Shown here: one piece after another, positions 3,429 through 38,935 of the stretch | How the letters are laid out: each line of letters opens with the position of its first letter | Position numbering within the stretch: the stretch's first letter is position 1 | Virus record (IMG/VR): IMGVR_UViG_3300017963_000201 | Span: 1 to 64,000 of that record | Length of the DNA: 64,000 nucleotides | Direction: 5' to 3' (one strand) | DNA from: a virus | The notes under the pieces: model-generated | The model's database searches: none | What the model was told of the DNA's origin: nothing | Seen by the model: the letters and a program-made list of their open reading frames with translations, nothing else | Made by a program: the position numbers and the translations under genes

Positions 3429-5944
3429 TATACTTCCACCTCTTTAACTGAACCCCACGTATCACCCATTTTGAATTCTAGCTCCATTGGGCATCTAAAG
3501 TCAGGATATCCAGTGTCTACAACATGCTTCATAATTTTCATAAGTTTTTTAGCATGCTCCTTTTTCACTAAAAATGCATTTTCGTCATGAGTAGTCAAGG
3601 CAGGGTAACATTTTATCCCTTCTCTCCTTGCCAACGTAAGCATCTTAACCATATACCCATTGTTCATATCAGAAGCTTGGCCCTGAATAGGACTATTCTT
3701 TGCTTGCCTTTCGGCTTCAGCCACTACTCCCGGGTCCTCATTAGTATCTACTAATAAAATAGGAAGGCGACGCTTTCTCCCAAACCATGTCTTAACATAA
3801 CCATAAGTATGCCCAAACTTAACTATCTCATCCAACCAATTTTTAGCAATCGGGTAGGTACTAAAAAACGTATCGCGCATAGTAATAGCAGTCGATTCAG
3901 GTATCTGGAAGGATGCCGCAATATCTTTAGTACCACGACCATACATTAACCCAAAATTAACAGTTTTTGCCATGTTACGCTGTTCTTTCGTAACTTCCTC
4001 TTCAGAGATCCCAAACACAGCCGCAGCGGTCTTGCGATGAATATCAAGCCCATGAGCAATGTCGTATAGCATATCGCGGTCATTCGAATAGTGAGCCCAA
4101 CATCTAAACTCTGCTTGTGCTAGATCTGCCTTGACAAATACGTACCCGTCATCTGCTACAAAGCATTCCTTAAAATCAATAGCATCACGAGGTATGTTTT
4201 GCATATTAGGATCACGGGAGGCTAACCGCCCAGAAACCGTCGCATGCTGCAAATAACTAGTATGAATCCTACCATCGTAAGCAGACTTTTCGTACACAGA
4301 AACCAAGTACGTTGATATATATTTAGCCAATTTTCGATAAGACACAATTATACTAGCAATTAATACACCCTGTTTACTAAGTTCGGACAGAACAGTGGCA
4401 TCTGTACTATTACCTGTCTTTGTTTTTTTAATCGGTTTAATGTGCATATGATCAAAAAATAATTCTGACAATTGCTTAGGCGATCCAAAATTAAACTGCC
4501 AATCCCCAGATTTCAACATAGCTTTTGCATATGATTTCGCACCATCAGGGTATCTTGACTTTAGCATTTTTGAATTTTCGTATTTAATTACTAATTTTTT
4601 AACTGCAGCTTTCTTTCGTATTTTTTGATAATCCAATACGTCTTCATCCTCATAAAGATCGCTCTTAATTTTTTCTAACTTATCTTCGTATATATTAATG
4701 AGTTCTCTTAACTTATCCCGATCTACCTTTATCCCTCTATATTCCATCTCCATAATTATAGGCATAATAGGTAAAGTGTGTTTTTTATAAAAACCCATCA
4801 AATCTTCATTTTTCAGCATTACCCGAAAAAGCTCAAATAACCTAAAAGTAGCATCTGCATCTTTAGCCCCATATAGATAAAGAACATCTTTTGGAAGCAT
4901 AGAAAAACTAATATCATCCTTCTTAATTTTATTCTTTTTTACCAACTCGGCTAGGCACTGATCTCTCTCAAACCAATAAGGACCCATATCAGTATAGCGT
5001 AAAGTTAAATCGTCTAGGCCATGACGGGCATTTTCGTCTAATAGATGATGGGCCAACATAGTATCAAAAATAGGACCTTTGATCTTAAATCCCTGAGCAT
5101 GTAAAACATGAATATCAAATTTAGCATTATGCCCAATCTTTATCTTATTTGTATTTAATAGATCTTGTAATCTATCCCGATACCCGTTCTTTACCATACC
5201 CCAAGGGATTGCCACCCCTAAGCCTTTTTTCCAACTAAACTGAATACACAAAACATCCGCAGACAAGTAGTGTAAAGAACTAGTCTCAACATCAAATGAA
5301 AATGCACGAGATTCAGACAAAGCACGAAATACTTTATCCACTTTTTCTGGACTATCAGCTACTAGATATTTTGTTTTTGTCTCCTCTTTTTGTAGGACTT
5401 TTTTAGACCCTGATTCAGAAACAATCAGTTTTAGTGCCTTTTCGATCCAAGGTCTTTCCGATAGATTACGCAGGATATACGCTGGATGATAAGAGGGTAT
5501 CACCTTAACCTTAAACTCAGCACTATATTGAATGGTGTTTTGGTATTTCGATATCACGCCCTTTTTAAGAACAGCTTTTAATGCTGTGTTTCCCAAAACA
5601 CCAATGACATACGGTTTGACCCTTTTTATCTCCTCTTCAAGGTAGAACCTACAAAACCCAATTTCTTTATTATCTGGCGTGGTTTCCTTTTTCCGTGTAA
5701 AGCATTTCACAGCATTAGTAAGATATATATCTCCCCGATCAACACCTAGATCGTATAGTATCTCATTAATTAATGCTCCCGAACGCCCAGCAAACGGGGT
5801 GCCTTCTTCGTCTTCAGATGCCCCAGGATTTTCACCAACGAGCATAATCCGTGATCGCTTCGGGCCACACCCCATAACGCATGGGTTTTTTATTTTTTGG
5901 GTATACCTAGGACATTCTTTGGGGCAACGTTTGCGGGGATCCAT
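3428..5944 (-). CDS. polA: Family A DNA polymerase with N-terminal family-4 uracil-DNA-glycosylase-like domain and 3'-5' exonuclease
   Basis: UDG4 motifs ([29 protein letters not shown]); Exo motifs (FDVET, HNAKFD, YGAKDAD); Pol motifs ([40 protein letters not shown]). Confidence 0.95.
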
Positions 5945-32148: not shown

Positions 32149-32330
32149 ATACAAGAATACTAAGAATCCCATTCGAGACTTAAACTATGCTAAAATTGGT
32201 TAACACAGCTGCTCGATTCCTGCTCAACCAAGAGTTTCGTCTTCCCTTTGATGGAAAGACCAGCGCTCTCAGGGCAGCAGGCTGTCACCGCGTAGGTCGC
32301 GGCCAATTGTTTCAAATTTTCTGCAGCGTT
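32149..32330 (-). ncRNA. Predicted TnpB omega/reRNA (scaffold overlapping tnpB 3' end, guide from phage flank ~GATTCTTAGTATTCTTGTAT)
   Basis: Inferred from the known TnpB architecture; the element 3' end reads ...GAGCAGGAA...GTCTCGAATGG, resembling IS607-type right ends; 5' boundary is approximate. Confidence 0.5.
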
Positions 32331-33392
32331 CTCATCCCGGTCGTGCTTTGTCCCGCACTCACAAAACCAGTGGCGTTCGCTGAGGCTAAGCGCGTCGTAG
32401 ACAAGACCACAGGTCGAACAAGTTTTGCTCGAAGCGAACCAGCGGTTTGCTCGAACGACCGTTGTACCGGCAAACTTAGCTTTGTAGTTGAGCTGCCGTC
32501 CGACTTCGGCCATCGCGGCGTCCATTATGGACTTAGCGAGACGGCGATTCGCTACCATTCCTCTGATGTTCAAGTCTTCAATGCCGATCCAACGGAAACG
32601 TCGGACCAACTGCGCAGTCAATTTGTGCGTCACGTTCTTACGTACGTTGGTGCTTCGTTCGTACAGCCGCTGGAGCTTTGTTCTCGTCTTTTGCCAGTTC
32701 TTCCCTCCTTTGTGTCGACGAGACAACTCTTTGTTCAACATCCGCTGACGCTTTTCTATTTGACGCAACGCTCTAGGTGCTTCGATACGTTCTCCGGTCG
32801 AAAGAACGGCAAGGTTTACGACGCCCAAATCTACTCCGACAGCTGCTTGGGTTTCACAGCGGTGGGGATAAGACCAGCGGGCTTCGTCGACCTTGACCTG
32901 TACCGATACATACCAGTGCCCTGCGTGCTTAGAGAAGCGTGCAGAAAGGATGTTGCCCGGAAAGCGCAACGCTTGCCGGGTTCTAATCCATCCAATCTTT
33001 GGCACTTTGATTCGGAGTGCGTCAAACTGTATTGCTCTTCCCTCAATGCTAAAAGCAGGTTTTGTCCGCTTTTTACTTTTGAAACGCGGGTAACCGGGCT
33101 TTTCTCCGATTTTTACGCGCCGAAAAAAGTGCTGAAAAGCGTTGTTCAAATCTTGCAGAGCGCTATTGGGTACCGCCCAGGGAAGTTCTTTGAGCCAAAA
33201 CAGGTCGCTTCGTTTGCGCGCATTAACTTCGCGATTAATGCTTTGCCAGTTGGGCTTGCCGCCCGCTTTATATACCTGCTGCCAGCGATCCAAACCGAGA
33301 TTGTAAACAAAACGCGCCGCACCAGCAAACCGTTCCAGCTGCGTCATTTGCACGTTGTTCGGGTCGAGCCGAATCCGCTGTCCCAAAATCAT
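32190..33392 (-). CDS. tnpB: TnpB RNA-guided endonuclease
   Basis: HTH_OrfB start (RIRLDPN...ARFVYN), YPRFKSKK, RuvC-I GVDLG, RuvC-II IEDLN, Zn finger CSTCG..CECG, RuvC-III DRDENAA; catalytic D-E-D intact. Confidence 0.97.
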   Translation of the reverse strand: MILGQRIRLDPNNVQMTQLERFAGAARFVYNLGLDRWQQVYKAGGKPNWQSINREVNARKRSDLFWLKELPWAVPNSALQDLNNAFQHFFRRVKIGEKPGYPRFKSKKRTKPAFSIEGRAIQFDALRIKVPKIGWIRTRQALRFPGNILSARFSKHAGHWYVSVQVKVDEARWSYPHRCETQAAVGVDLGVVNLAVLSTGERIEAPRALRQIEKRQRMLNKELSRRHKGGKNWQKTRTKLQRLYERSTNVRKNVTHKLTAQLVRRFRWIGIEDLNIRGMVANRRLAKSIMDAAMAEVGRQLNYKAKFAGTTVVRANRWFASSKTCSTCGLVYDALSLSERHWFCECGTKHDRDENAAENLKQLAATYAVTACCPESAGLSIKGKTKLLVEQESSSCVNQF

Positions 33393-33544
33393 TTGGCGTT
33401 CATTGCCTTTCGTACGATCCGCCGAAGAATTTCGGATATCGACACGTCGTTGCGTTTGGCTTCAAGTCGCAGCCACGCCAAAAGCGGCGGGTCAAAGGAC
33501 AGTTTGATACTCGGCATTCGTTGTAGCTTTTTCGGAGCAGGCAT
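33389..33544 (-). CDS. Ribbon-helix-helix (CopG-like) protein, 51 aa, ATGA-coupled to tnpB
   Basis: Below the ORF track cutoff; translates MPAPKKLQRMPSIKLSFDPPLLAWLRLEAKRNDVSISEILRRIVRKAMNAK. Confidence 0.75.
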   Translation of the reverse strand: MPAPKKLQRMPSIKLSFDPPLLAWLRLEAKRNDVSISEILRRIVRKAMNAK

Positions 33545-33551
33545 GGTGGAG

Positions 33552-33580
33552 AGTATAGCTACGCCCAACGATTACGTCAA
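33552..33580 (-). promoter_or_regulatory. sigma70 promoter for RHH-tnpB (probably leaderless mRNA)
   Basis: TTGACG-17 nt-TATACT, with ATG 7 nt downstream. Confidence 0.75.
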
Positions 33581-33620
33581 GAGGCAACTTGATGGCTGTC
33601 TAGTTAACAAAGGATACACC

Positions 33621-35692
33621 GTGGAAAATACAAGCGAATTAAAATTTCGTCGGAAAGGTTGAATGGGATTATTGCCCATATTGACGCAGGCAAGACCACC
33701 GTAACCGAAAGGTTTTTGTACTATACGGGCGTGACTCATCGCATGGGAGAGGTCCACGATGGACAGGCCGTCATGGACTGGATGCCCCAGGAACAAGAAC
33801 GTGGTATTACCATTACCTCGGCGGTCACCGTGCTGCCCTGGCGCAAACATGAAATCCACCTCATCGACACACCGGGGCACGTGGATTTTACCGTTGAAGT
33901 CGAACGCAGCTTGCGAGTCCTCGACGCAGCGGTTGTGGTCTTTTGTGCCGTGGGAGGAGTCGAGCCCCAATCAGAGACAGTATGGCGACAAGCAGATCGC
34001 TACCAGATCCCCAGATTGGCCTTTATCAACAAAATGGATCGTGTCGGGGCAGACTACGAAGGTTGTGTCGAGCAAATGGTCGACAAGCTGGGCTGCGTTC
34101 CCATGCCAATCCAGATTCCCCTGGGAAAAGAAGAAAACCTCCAGGGAGTGGTCGATCTAGTCAGAATGGAGATATTGCGCTGGCATACTGAAGACCTTGG
34201 GGCCACCTTCGACCGCTCACCCCTCAATGACGACCCTGAAATTGCCGCCCTAGCCGCTCCGTGGAGAGACCGGCTGCTCGAGATTCTGGCGGATGACGAC
34301 GACCAAATCGCCGAGGCTTATCTTGCCGGAGATACCATTGCCACTGAAAAAATCATGGCCGCGGTTCGCAAGCAGTGCCTGTCCAACCGTGCGGTGCCGG
34401 TTTTGTGTGGCTCGGCCCTCAAGAACAAGGGAGTTCAACCCTTGCTCGATGCAGTCGTCGACTTTTTACCAGCGCCGGTGGAATTGCCTCCAGTCCAGGG
34501 GACCCATCCCCAGACCAAAGAACCGGTCGTCATGGAGCGTAATCGCAACGAGCCCTTTTCCGGCGTCGCGTTCAAGGTCCAACTCTGGGACGGACGCAAA
34601 CACACGTATCTACGCATCTACTCGGGCTCGCTGAGCGCCACTGACACGGTCTACAACCCGAACAAGGACGCCAATGAAAAAATAGCTCGCCTTCTGAAGC
34701 TGCACGCCGACAAGAAGTCCCGTATCCAACGGGCTGACGCAGGCGACATCGTGGGCGTCGTGGGGCTGAAAAAGGCGACAACCGGAGACACCCTGTGCAC
34801 CCGAGCCCATCCGGTCGTCTTTGGGCAAATGACGTTCATGACCCCAGTCATCTCCATGGCGGTGGAGGCCAAAACCAGCCGAGTGGAAGAAAAACTCAAA
34901 GAGGTCCTGGTAAAAATGGTCGAAGAAGACCCCACCTTTACCGTGACCCAGGATCCCGACACTGGGCAAACCATTTTGAGCGGTATGGGCGAGCTCCACC
35001 TCGAAATCATCTGTGATCGTCTGGAGCGAGAATTCCACGTTCCGGTCAATGTCGGCAAACCCCAGGTTGTCTATCGCGAGACCTTGTCACAGGCAACCGA
35101 AGCCTCGGAACGCTTCGAGAGAAAATTCGACGAGACAGCCAAGGCCAAAAACATGTTCGCTGGGATAACCCTCAAGGCCGAACCTCTAGGTCGGGGACTC
35201 GGTCTAAAGTTCACAAACACCATCGTCCGCCCCCCGGAAGCACCCCCGATTCCCGCAGACTTCATCCAGGCCGCAGAAGAAGGGGTCCGGGAGGCTGCTG
35301 GCGCCGGGCCGCAGTCAGGCTATCCCATCACCGACATAGCGGTCTCGCTCAAGGGCATCGAGTTCAAAGAGGGTGACACAACGCCCATTGCGGTTCACAT
35401 CGCCGCAGCGGGTGCTTTTCGGCGTGCCTGCGAAAAAGCCGGAACGGAGCTACTGCTTCCCATAATGGCGTTGGAAGCAGTGACGCCCGAAGATTTCACG
35501 GGGGCCGTTATTGGAGACATCAACTCACGGGGAGGCAAGGTCGAAGAGCTCGAGAAGAAAGCATCCAGGACCATCATCCGGGCCCAGGTTCCGATGACCA
35601 AGATGTTCGGCTATGCCACCAGCCTCCGTTCATTGACTGAAGGCCGGGGTACTTTTAGCATGCGGTTTCTCAAGTTTGATAGGGCGTCCTGA
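33621..35692 (+). pseudogene. fusA: Elongation factor G, host-like, 5' end split: GTG 33621 gives [13 protein letters not shown]-stop, and the body continues in the -1 frame from TTG 33659
   Basis: AAAGGA RBS before GTG 33621; body has [57 protein letters not shown]; conserved RNIG is replaced by CGG AAAGGTTGAAT GGG. Could still be expressed via the TTGA stop/start overlap. Confidence 0.85.
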
Positions 35693-35698
35693 CCGGGT

Positions 35699-35890
35699 AT
35701 GAGCAACCAGCCCCCAACCAGTAGCGAATCACGGTGTTACAGGGGCCTGGTCTTGTGGCTTGTGTTGGTCGCAGCCGGAATCCTAGGCATGCTTTTGGGG
35801 TTTTGGATAGGACGTCGGGCCGATTCGTCTTACCTCGAGCTTCAGGTTGTCTCCGATCGTATAAATACCAGACAAAAACGTCAAGAGTAA
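35699..35890 (+). pseudogene. 5' fragment of a single-pass membrane protein gene, truncated at the island border
   Basis: TM segment GLVLWLVLVAAGILGMLLGFWIG; GC-rich codons change abruptly to AT-rich sequence near 35855. Confidence 0.55.
35856..35884 (-). promoter_or_regulatory. sigma70 promoter firing leftward into the GC-rich island (antisense to fusA)
   Basis: TTGACG-17 nt-TACGAT. Confidence 0.65.
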
Positions 35891-36387
35891 TTATTTTAAA
35901 TTCCAATCTAACAAATTTATAAATATATCTTTTAGGCTATTATTATTACTAAAACACCTAATTATATTTTTAGTTAGTTTCAAAATTCTGGCATAAAACT
36001 TGCTTAAACTAAATAAAAATCTTACCAAAGAAAACGCGGATTCATACTGTGAATAAAGGGTGAAACGAGAAAAAGCCACTGACACAAAAAATTACACATA
36101 TATCAAACAACAAATCAAAGAATGGCATATTCTTTTGTACATTTAGGATTATAAGACCGATTTTTTTGATTAAATTTAAGTTATATAAAACAATGACATA
36201 AAAACACAAACAGAAATAATTCCGTAGTTGAACAAAAAACACAGGAATTTTTAGATTAAGGTTTGTATGGAGCACCTCAATAATTAAGGCATTTTTATCG
36301 AAAAAATACAAAAAAAATCCAGGGAATAATTCTCTATATATTACATAGTTATACCCCCATGTACGATTTAACTTGACAAAGTTTTTG
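35890..36387. other. AT-rich, A-tract-rich intergenic region at the strand divergence; candidate replication origin or control region
   Basis: No credible ORF, many A4-A8 tracts, phage gene orientation flips here. Confidence 0.45.
35989..36004 (+). promoter_or_regulatory. sigma54-type -24/-12 promoter
   Basis: TGGCATAAAACTTGCT = GG-N10-GC, close to TGGCAC-N5-TTGCW. Confidence 0.55.
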
Positions 36388-36987
36388 GCTTGCGATTTGC
36401 TACCTTTCTTGCAAGAAGCCGAACAGCGATAGCTGTTTGGATCGCGCAAGCACGGACCCCGTAAGGGGTTCGTGGACCTAACATTTGCCCCTTGCCTCTT
36501 ATGTTTTTATCATGCATGTTAAAAAATATACAAGCCATTTAGAGTATGCCATTCATGGTGGGTTTTAACCCACCATTAGAAGGCATTTAAATCAATTGAG
36601 GCCGAGCAGGTTGATACTGCTCGGGTGATAATTGGTTTGAATGACTTCTCTTTCGTTTGATATTTGATTTATGATTTGCAAAACATATCTTAAAACTTAG
36701 ATTTTGTCCTTGTAAGCAGAGATCTGTCTTTTTGGTAAATCAAAATATTCAGTAATAATTAATAAGTTAATGTTCTTTCAAAGGGGATGTGAATGGAACT
36801 ATAGTCTCATTTACCCTATCGGGTATGGGTGATGGTGCTACGCACCTATCACCCACCATTCGACTCGTTCCATCCACATCCGAAACATGAGAATAGGCAG
36901 AAGCCTGCACTCGTGCTTCGCTTATGCGAAGCACTCCTTTGTTCCTGCCTAGCTACCGGCTCAGAAAAAATCCGGTATTATATTCTC
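36388..36987. ncRNA. ~600 nt highly structured non-coding element (candidate large ncRNA or ssDNA origin hairpins)
   Basis: More than 10 stems including 36419-36440, 36451-36474, 36546-36586, 36587-36641, 36659-36750, 36785-36881, 36889-36987. Confidence 0.6.
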
Positions 36988-36988
36988 T

Positions 36989-37366
36989 ATGAAAACCATC
37001 ATTGCAGGATCCAGAAATATAGAAGACTATATTTTAGTCTGTGATGCTGTGGCAGAATCTAAGTTTACTATTACTGAGGTAGTATCTGGTAGTGCTAAGG
37101 GTATTGATCAACTTGGAGAACGTTGGGCAAAAGAGAATAATATACCTATTACTAAATTTCCTGCTGATTGGGAAAAGTATGCTAAGAAAGCAGGATATAT
37201 CCGTAATCAAAAAATGGCCAAGTATGCTGATCAATTAATCCTAGTTTGGGATGGATTTTCTCGTGGATCTAGTGGTATGCTTCGCACAGCTTATTTTTTA
37301 GGTTTGAAAGTCTATGTCAAACTTGTTAGTAAAGGAGGGCCATATGCCCAGAAAAAAGAAGGTTAG
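36989..37366 (+). CDS. SLOG/YspA-like (DUF2493) protein
   Basis: MKTIIAGSR, EVVSGSAKGID, ADWEKY.K.AG.IRN.KMA, WDG.SRG. Confidence 0.85.
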   Translation: MKTIIAGSRNIEDYILVCDAVAESKFTITEVVSGSAKGIDQLGERWAKENNIPITKFPADWEKYAKKAGYIRNQKMAKYADQLILVWDGFSRGSSGMLRTAYFLGLKVYVKLVSKGGPYAQKKEG

Positions 37367-37853
37367 GAAGGAACCCCTTAGTTACGATCCAATTAATGAT
37401 TACGTCGTAGACATGGCAAATCAGCTTATCGCTAAACACCATCCCCACCTTGCAGATGCTAAAATGGCATATCTTTGGCGCAATAAACCTTTGATGGAAT
37501 CTGGACAAGCGGTATTTGCTAAAGCCAAAAAAATCACAGGAGAGATGCACGCTCTTTGTGATAAAGAATTTTTGATCGTGATTGTCTACCCTATGTGGAA
37601 TGATTTAAAAGAAGAAGAAAAGTGGGCCATATTGGATCATGAACTTACTCATTGCTTTGTAGACGAAGACGAAGAAGGCGAACGAGTATGTAAGATCCTA
37701 CCCCATGACTTTAGTGATTTTGGAGAAATTATAGTCAGACATGGTTTATACGGGAATCTAAAAGTCATTGCTGAAGCTATGAAAATAAGAAAGCTAAAGA
37801 AAGAAACAAAAGTTACAAAAGCGGCTCAAGAAGAAGCACCGGCTCTACAGTGA
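37344..37853 (+). CDS. Putative phage metallopeptidase
   Basis: HHPHL, ILDHELTHC, PHDFSDF (HExxH). Confidence 0.75.
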   Translation: MPRKKKVRKEPLSYDPINDYVVDMANQLIAKHHPHLADAKMAYLWRNKPLMESGQAVFAKAKKITGEMHALCDKEFLIVIVYPMWNDLKEEEKWAILDHELTHCFVDEDEEGERVCKILPHDFSDFGEIIVRHGLYGNLKVIAEAMKIRKLKKETKVTKAAQEEAPALQ

Positions 37854-38728: not shown

Positions 38729-38935
38729 ATGCTACACAACACTTCAATAAGGCTATCGAAGCAAGAAAAAAAATGGCTTGCTTCGTTTGGGAGACCAGTT
38801 GGGGAGCAAATCAGGATACACAATAGGCTTGTGCGAAAGTTGTATGCCCTGGCCGAAAAAAACAAGACGATTACCTTAGCAGAAGCTCTATCAATATTAG
38901 ATAGCGATCCACTTGAGGAGTCTGATGCAGAATAA
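38729..38935 (+). CDS. Small RHH-like DNA-binding protein
   Basis: TSIRLSKQEKKWL...PVGEQIR beta-alpha-alpha pattern; AGGAGG RBS. Confidence 0.55.
   Translation: MLHNTSIRLSKQEKKWLASFGRPVGEQIRIHNRLVRKLYALAEKNKTITLAEALSILDSDPLEESDAE

Follow-up and report, generated by a model that had tools for sequence, protein, structure and literature searches.

The window analysed here is the first 64 kb (64,000 nucleotides) of a 144,959-bp IMG/VR record (IMGVR_UViG_3300017963_000201), which is rated linear and ~79% complete, and our subject is a stretch of dense hairpins at positions 36388-36987 of that window. The contig is a 145-kb phage record whose genes include a tail-sheath-like gene, a portal and a large terminase (TerL). 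Its leftward genes occupy 1-32172; the two that were scanned there are glycosyltransferases, and the first gene of the leftward operon encodes a GT9-like glycosyltransferase. The rightward block begins at 36989 and comprises genes for a YspA/SLOG protein, a phage metallopeptidase, an N6/N4 methylase, an AcrVA2-like protein and a nicotinamide adenine dinucleotide (NAD) ligase. The hairpin region forms the right half of a gene-less gap of 1133 bp (35856-36988), which is common to all strains (L098-L101) at 98-100% identity. A preliminary description, made from the letters of the DNA, had placed the hairpins at the divergence point of the genome, and in the strains free of an inserted island gene orientation does diverge at this locus. 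The features of the gap and of its right border are collected in Table 1.

Table 1. Modules, spacers, repeats and promoter-like sequences in the gap, and the gene that follows it (window coordinates; energies in kcal/mol; z, score against shuffled sequence)
Feature	Coordinates	Strand	Details
Sigma70-like leftward promoter	35856-35884	-	TTGACG-17-TACGAT, toward the leftward operon; left edge of the gap
Sigma54-like motif, rightward	35989-36004	+	TGGCAT-N5-TTGCT; strict pattern 3 times, relaxed pattern 4 times in the contig; motif only
Best sigma70-like candidate in the gap	36193-36220	+	ATGACA-16-AATAAT; 10/12 consensus match only
Direct repeat D1, copy 1	36309-36337	+	29 nt, 72% like copy 2; ~50 nt upstream of module A
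Module A	36388-36477	+	-44.4 on + (z -5.6), -33.8 on - (z -3.4); wobble pairs 2 on +, 1 on -
Spacer 1, AT-rich, unstructured	36478-36554		z +1.5/+1.0; weak promoter-like sites on both strands
Module B	36555-36650	+	-53.4 on + (z -8.7), -40.3 on - (z -8.8); wobble pairs 4 on +, 0 on -
Spacer 2, AT-rich, unstructured	36651-36784		z +0.1/-0.1
Module C overall	36785-36987	lean to -	-87.7 on + (z -8.5), -96.2 on - (z -8.2)
Module C1	36785-36881	-, uncertain	-50.8 on +, -56.1 on -; 15-bp stem 36785-36799/36867-36881 closing a three-way junction, two hairpins
Module C2	36890-36987		-36.9 on +, -40.1 on -; 6-7-bp closing helix 36890-36896/36981-36987 round two arms
Direct repeat D1, copy 2	36962-36990	+	Ends in the YspA ATG; includes TATTAT 7 nt upstream of the ATG
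YspA/SLOG gene (DUF2493), first of the rightward operon	36989-37366	+	PF10686, 2.8e-14

The region folds far more strongly than shuffled sequence. On the + strand, 36388-36987 reaches -216.5 kcal/mol against a shuffle mean of -148.5 (z -10.0), and on the - strand -200.6 kcal/mol (z -8.4), with no shuffle as good in either case; in a scan of 150-nt windows over the entire 144,959-bp contig, those of the hairpin region rank at the top on both strands. Every stem listed in the preliminary description was found at its place, and the same helices recur in the centroid of the full-length 600-nt fold. The stems had been called almost continuous, which is not the case. Folded piecewise, the region resolves into three self-folding modules, A, B and C, and the spacers between them (211 of the 600 nt together) fold like shuffles, with z from -0.1 to +1.5, so that the feature is three modules and not one unit. 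The left half of the gap, 35856-36387, also folds like shuffled sequence. Compared with each other, the modules showed no likeness and no terminal inverted repeats.

Each module has a layout of its own. Module A consists of a 7-bp outer stem round two hairpins, one of them of 9 bp with a GAUA loop (36419-36440, GATA in the DNA), and then a 9-10-bp hairpin with a GUAA loop of the GNRA type (36451-36474, GTAA in the DNA). Outer stems round two hairpins and a GNRA loop are typical of single-stranded folds and not of operator sites. Module B opens with a perfect 9-10-bp hairpin (36555-36576), which is followed by a 73-nt imperfect hairpin of ~28 pairs (36578-36650) and a weak U-rich tail; the hairpin at 36603-36625 is nested within this long outer stem. 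In module C, the closing helix of C2 stops one base short of the YspA ATG at 36989, and one C2 arm carries the gap's only terminator-like hairpin (36913-36934), 55 nt upstream of the AUG, with a weak U-rich tail that is present only on the + strand and brings the site to 36913-36945. The GCGAAGC sequence singled out earlier as an extra-stable DNA hairpin is present, but merely as the 3' arm of a 9-bp stem.

Modules A and B are folds of the + strand. Their advantage on that strand amounts to 10.6 kcal/mol for A and 13.1 kcal/mol for B, and the wobble pairs, counted in the computed folds as G.U pairs whose counterpart on the opposite strand is A.C, number 6 on + and 1 on - across A and B (36388-36655), against 1 on + and 5 on - in C (36780-36990). 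This contrast, which bears out an early remark on strand preference, gives a Fisher p of ~0.03 and is indicative only, since the pairs derive from the folds themselves. Loops of the G...A kind appear when A is read on + (GAUA, GUAA) and C on - (GAUA, GUA, AUAA), and in energy, too, module C leans slightly to the - strand. The bias of A and B fits selection on one strand and not double-stranded palindromes.

As the preliminary description had it, the region can be assigned to no known family. Rfam 15 (ROOL, GOLLD, OLE, HEARO and all others) gave no match in the whole window at gathering scores, and with E up to 10 the interval 35600-37400 gave three matches at chance level, which scored 13-18 bits where the cut-offs are 38-60. 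For an RNA anti-CRISPR, a solitary hairpin mimicking a CRISPR repeat of the host, the same permissive search offered only a match of 14.9 bits to one CRISPR direct-repeat (CRISPR-DR) model, and the hairpin was not found in 18 genomes of the likely host order. ARAGORN found no tRNA or tmRNA in the window. Large phage-associated RNAs such as ROOL and GOLLD had been named for comparison, and together with OLE (PMC5737381, PMC12286853) they share with the region a span of ~600 nt, a phage setting, many helices and multibranch junctions. Unlike them, the region here has no covariance-model match at E up to 10 and no demonstrable conserved junction sequences, is one third unstructured and is absent from syntenic relatives; as its modules also fold by themselves, a single large ornate RNA of that sort does not fit it.

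The region also appears to be singular. Covariance models of A, B and C1 match only themselves in the contig, and they found no homologue in the loci of seven relatives, in the whole records of four relatives or in the 18 genomes of the likely host order. Queried by BLAST, the gap matched nothing else in the contig, and a phage collection gave no match. Viral contigs scanned with four exact patterns derived from the hairpins gave chance matches or generic hairpins only; a metagenome scan with the perfect palindrome gave only the phage's own contig and four unrelated single hairpins; and YspA, ligase and TerL, used as anchor genes, led to no syntenic copy of the region. Judging from translations read by eye, on which neither a family search nor a codon test was made, the region would be non-coding: the 20 short open reading frames (ORFs) in the gap have no Shine-Dalgarno sequence and none is protein-like. 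Two gene calls in the gap, of 55 aa and 64 aa, occur only in the phage's own strains by exact-cluster look-up, differing by one single-nucleotide polymorphism. A pseudogene remnant of YspA or of the metallopeptidase was looked for in the gap, and none was found.

We then consider the same junction in related phages. Relatives of the GT9-like gene at 46-59% protein identity lie on large phage contigs with the same divergent layout, and the non-coding DNA at their divergence point is 162, 220, 440, 504, 1029 or 1370 bp long, with one truncated contig showing at least 650 bp. YspA is missing from this position in the syntenic relatives, whose operon starts with a small gene that reads as a ribbon-helix-helix protein or with the metallopeptidase gene; no homologue of the small first gene was found in the gap of the present phage. 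Among the seven syntenic lineages, BLAST found no likeness of the junction sequence, either to the present phage or between lineages. Strong folding nonetheless recurs: in 6 of the 7 lineages with the same gene layout, the equivalent non-coding stretch contains a 200-nt window with a z of -4.9 to -14.6. The best windows have z values of -4.9 in L213, -5.2 in L212, -6.0 in L207, -6.3 in L214, -8.1 in the present phage and -14.6 in L211, and the -3.5 of L210 means little, because the windows are the best picked from many. Conservation, to which the preliminary description had looked, is thus found in the kind of feature, which returns at the same place in relatives, and not in the sequence, which is conserved only among the strains. 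That folded non-coding DNA recurs at the junction although its sequence is lineage-specific argues for a function and against mere debris, and the folding probably matters.

Three of these junctions have peculiar contents. In L211 (k141_216156 of ERZ27315072), positions 2290-2490 contain six tandem perfect hairpins in 170 nt, with stems of 6-14 bp and loops of 3-13 nt. The cluster, which folds at -81.7 kcal/mol (z -13) about equally on both strands, had been called as a 96-aa gene and lies directly after the small, ribbon-helix-helix-reading first gene of the metallopeptidase operon. In L207 (SRR26786791_16090), an iteron-like array at 350-560, upstream of the GT9-like gene, carries TAGAGTCA and its complement 5-6 times, with TTAATGA recurring; it is called as a 69-aa gene and could be an operator or origin array. 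The divergent gap of L212 has, at 4600-4680, CGCGTGCG palindromes that form a GC-rich set, as well as two other long hairpins.

Within the strain group the gap has changed little. Close strains differ from the present one at 12 positions of its 1133 bp and by one 5-nt indel. In the 389 nt of the modules, the three differences of the L098 type fall in a terminal loop (36613, the sole strain difference in module B), in an unpaired junction (36417, the sole one in module A) and at a stem position where a pair is restored (36792). The spacers (211 nt) have four substitutions and the indel; spacer 1 holds 3 of the 12 differences, and the 5-nt insertion of one strain type is in spacer 2. At four-fold sites of the two adjoining genes ~2% differ (2/113), and 6% over the four genes compared. 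Two of the variants lie in stems of module C. The present strain has A at 36792 where the L098 type has G, which turns A.C into G-C on + and G.U into G-C on -; C1 of that type folds at -57.7 on + and -59.0 on -, such that the advantage of the - strand shrinks to 1.3 kcal/mol. Position 36983 is C in L099, where A.C on + and G.U on - replace the A-U pair of the + strand.

The signals for transcription and translation around the modules are modest. The gap has no promoter of the strict form TTGACA-N17-TAnnnT, and besides the candidates of Table 1 there are weak promoter-like sites at 36485-36513 and 36732-36759 on + and at 36552-36525 and 37045-37016 on -. Motifs of the sigma54 type (TGGYAY-N5-TTGC) occur four times in the contig, at window positions 35989 and 44996 and at contig positions 82940 (+) and 83255 (-), a count above chance, well under one being expected by our own estimate. 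The direct repeat D1 has only two copies in the 145-kb contig; they have no -35 element and bracket a 653-bp segment with the modules. D1 could be a promoter pair or an insertion scar, or its copies might pair with GAGAAU at 36890 in an alternative fold. A Shine-Dalgarno sequence is missing before YspA, although a loose motif places a purine-rich site upstream of 77 of 135 phage genes; this lack, together with TATTAT so close to the YspA ATG, makes a leaderless mRNA possible.

The reading that we favour, tentatively and short of calling it probable, is that the region is a fast-evolving, lineage-specific structured leader or non-coding RNA of the rightward early operon. Three observations speak for it: the one-strand selection suggested for A and B concerns the operon's sense strand, no reasonable promoter is found except upstream, and the last module reaches to the start codon of YspA, which has no ribosome site. 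Fold strength, the layout of the modules, the terminator-like hairpin with its tail on + only, the missing signs of a gene, the L098-type strain differences, the folded DNA in relatives and a phage that appears rich in non-coding RNA also count in its favour. Transcription running rightward from promoters that lie before 36388 would cross the region and give either a long leader or a separate non-coding transcript. In it, modules A, B and probably C would be independent, very stable RNA domains joined by floppy AU-rich linkers. Their action would likely be in cis, the domains protecting and processing the transcript, and they may gate entry into YspA, whose AUG abuts the C2 closing helix.

Leaders of phage early operons offer a precedent for such a transcript, as in the lambda N leader with nutL and an RNase III hairpin, the put sites of HK022 and the RNase III sites of T7. 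As in these leaders, an early promoter and the first gene would be separated by stable hairpins, a helix abuts the start codon, and the imperfect ~28-pair hairpin of module B is a duplex of the sort cut by RNase III. The leader here would, at 760-970 nt, be several times longer, and no homology to those leaders is known. The phage itself has another gene-less stretch with stable hairpins, at 87.6-88.0 kb, similar in this to the promoter-early stem-loop elements (PeSLs) of the T4 type. In that stretch, every strict TTGACA promoter has a hairpin and a T-run behind it; the TTGACA-N17-TAnnnT promoters and T-run terminators found there are missing from the modules described here.

Several results weigh against a structured leader or non-coding RNA. 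DNA folding parameters give the same structures and the same strand ranking as RNA parameters, so that folding energy does not tell an RNA from single-stranded DNA. Module C has a slight stability advantage on the - strand, where most of its wobble pairs lie, and both natural variants in its stems are wobble-compatible only on -, which an RNA of the + strand alone does not explain. The counts of differences in spacers and modules are without statistical force because the four-fold divergence is only ~2%, and YspA and ligase have no relatives between ~64% and 99% protein identity, so that there are too few changes for covariation. The modules are bracketed by no canonical promoter or terminator. 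In the relatives, the perfect palindromes of L211, equal on both strands, are more like a DNA-level feature, and phages with gaps of 160-220 bp manage without such a leader.

We regard as unlikely, yet as the most serious of the alternatives, that the region is a transcription-dependent replication origin of the c2 type (in principle also of the ColE1 RNA II or T4 R-loop kind), in which a transcript would prime or open the origin and hairpins on the displaced strands would serve as priming or loading signals. The origin of the lactococcal Ceduovirus (c2-type) phages is non-coding, lies between divergent gene blocks and is flanked by the first two early promoters, PE1 and PE2 (PMC7150918). It has neither an ORF nor a ribosome-binding site, its sequence is >90% identical within a type and without identity between types, and the PE1 transcript is implicated in initiation (PMC7150918). 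The region shares much of this: it is non-coding, several hundred bases long and set between divergent blocks, without ORF or ribosome site; it is 98-100% identical among strains and without BLAST likeness among the seven lineages, and, as with the Ceduovirus origin types, place and folding are kept; a structured non-coding transcript, implicated there, may matter here as well; and two like elements, here the D1 pair, bracket it as two like promoters would, beside the first early gene. The rightward block also has a ligase gene, easily melted AT-rich stretches flank the modules, and the modules prefer opposite strands. The differences are that we deal here with a contractile-tail phage of ~145-170 kb and a host that is likely a relative of the Myxococcota, that D1 is only a candidate promoter, without a -35 element and without further copies, and that the modules are far more stable and in part favour the opposite strand.

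Other marks of an origin were not encountered. The cumulative GC skew falls almost steadily along the contig, with its extremes at the contig ends, so that no genome-wide extreme falls here; at 36-37 kb there is a small local turn, as wherever genes run rightward. The gap has one 8-of-9 match to a DnaA box and no cluster, and the count in the whole window is that of chance; neither iterons nor any repeated motif was found in the gap. In the commoner strain type, module C prefers the - strand by a small margin (1.3 + 3.2 kcal/mol), and some relatives have only 160-220 bp at this place. The suggestion of a single-stranded DNA origin on two strands in the preliminary description has gained nothing from GC skew, DnaA boxes or iterons and stays a possible reading. 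A DnaA-dependent origin was set aside for want of a DnaA-box cluster.

Plasmid origins were compared as well. In ColE1, the primer RNA II is met by the antisense RNA I over the 5' end of the primer, and in the oriV of RSF1010 the sites ssiA and ssiB lie on opposite strands, resemble each other and are found beside iterons. The likeness would lie in a long structured transcript by AT-rich DNA and in functional hairpins on both strands. Here, in contrast to ColE1, the - strand is favoured at the 3' end and not at the 5' end, and, in contrast to RSF1010, the modules do not resemble one another and iterons were not found. Single-strand initiation signals of the RSF1010 or G4/phiX type were rejected on the same two grounds, although AT-rich DNA is present.

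A bolder version, which we think improbable, is that large phages of uncultured Myxococcota-like hosts, as a group, keep a hypervariable, strongly folding non-coding module where their two early gene blocks meet, which in this phage would be a transcription-primed origin: a transcript of A and B together with C on the displaced strand would form a two-strand RNA/DNA device without a sequence family. Should the region be an origin, the c2-type principle of 'diverse sequence, same function' would hold also for large phages whose host group is unstudied, and the region would be of use in building replicons.

It is also improbable, in our view, that the locus holds two or three small-RNA genes, A and B on the + strand and an antisense C on the - strand, the latter starting inside the first YspA codons and running over its start, like sar of P22 or OOP of lambda. 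The modules are independent and their linkers have weak promoter-like sites; in module C, the energy, the wobble pairs and the reading of the G...A loops all point to the - strand; and the same phage has strict units of promoter, hairpin and T-run at 87.6-88.0 kb. Unlike those units, no module has a TTGACA-N17-TAnnnT promoter or a clear T-run terminator, and A, B and C1 are each present once in the contig according to their covariance models.

We give about the same low credit to a region of functionless palindromic DNA, either a decayed small mobile or inserted element between the D1 repeats or the product of inverted duplication in a hypervariable spacer. The imperfect 29-nt direct repeat brackets the 653 bp with its second copy ending exactly at the ATG, syntenic relatives are without the segment, the spacer varies from 160 to 1370 bp, a mobile island is inserted directly adjacent in some strains, and constraint is without statistical proof. 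Against this, the segment is single-copy in the phage and has no match in the 18 likely-host-order genomes, its modules are unlike one another and lack terminal inverted repeats, each module is consistent in its wobble bias, the differences of the L098 type spare the pairs, and independent lineages keep strongly folded DNA at the same place.

Double-stranded protein-binding sites, whether operators, packaging or partition sites or cruciforms, are very unlikely: the perfect 10-bp inverted repeat at 36555-36576, the setting in a divergent control region and the small gene that opens the rightward operon of relatives, which reads by eye as a ribbon-helix-helix protein, would suit them, whereas stems of 9-15 bp with loops of 3-4 nt, nested in outer stems, are unlike operators, no repeated motif is seen, the gap of this phage has no homologue of the relatives' small genes, and the arms are not true DNA palindromes because their wobble pairs are strand-specific.

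Returning to a structured leader or non-coding RNA, what we describe is, on present evidence, a well-founded curiosity that falls short of a demonstrated new RNA class. Should the modules act as RNA, structured RNAs without a family would be added to a phage that already has tRNAs and a Ro60-like gene, and such RNAs could turn over completely between related phages while their place is kept. Folded, unrelated DNA recurring at one syntenic junction is a testable pattern under the RNA reading as well as under that of an origin.

The phage appears to be rich in non-coding RNA, as judged from its tRNAs and its Ro60-like gene. Four matches to tRNA models were found in the contig, three of them also by ARAGORN, with a cluster at 75.9-77.0 kb. 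Adjoining this cluster, contig positions 77949-79553 (L102:13949-15553) encode a 534-aa protein, Ro60-like, that matches phrog_850, 'RNA-binding protein'.

In the present strain, a GC-rich block of 3.7 kb (window 32168-35855, 50-57% GC) stands between the two gene blocks. It contains an EF-G-like gene of 677 aa and an ORF of 491 aa that matches nothing in Pfam, and in strains L098, L100 and L101 it is replaced by a 757-bp stretch with a leftward gene of 252 aa. The nearest genomic relatives of the EF-G-like protein, at 68-72%, are in metagenome-assembled genomes of uncultured Myxococcales or 'Deltaproteobacteria', which hints that the host is likely a relative of the Myxococcota. On the other side of the gap, in the 68-aa gene at 38729-38935, 7 of the 27 four-fold sites vary between strains, compared with 1 of the 53 in YspA, and this points to a recombination boundary inside the rightward operon.

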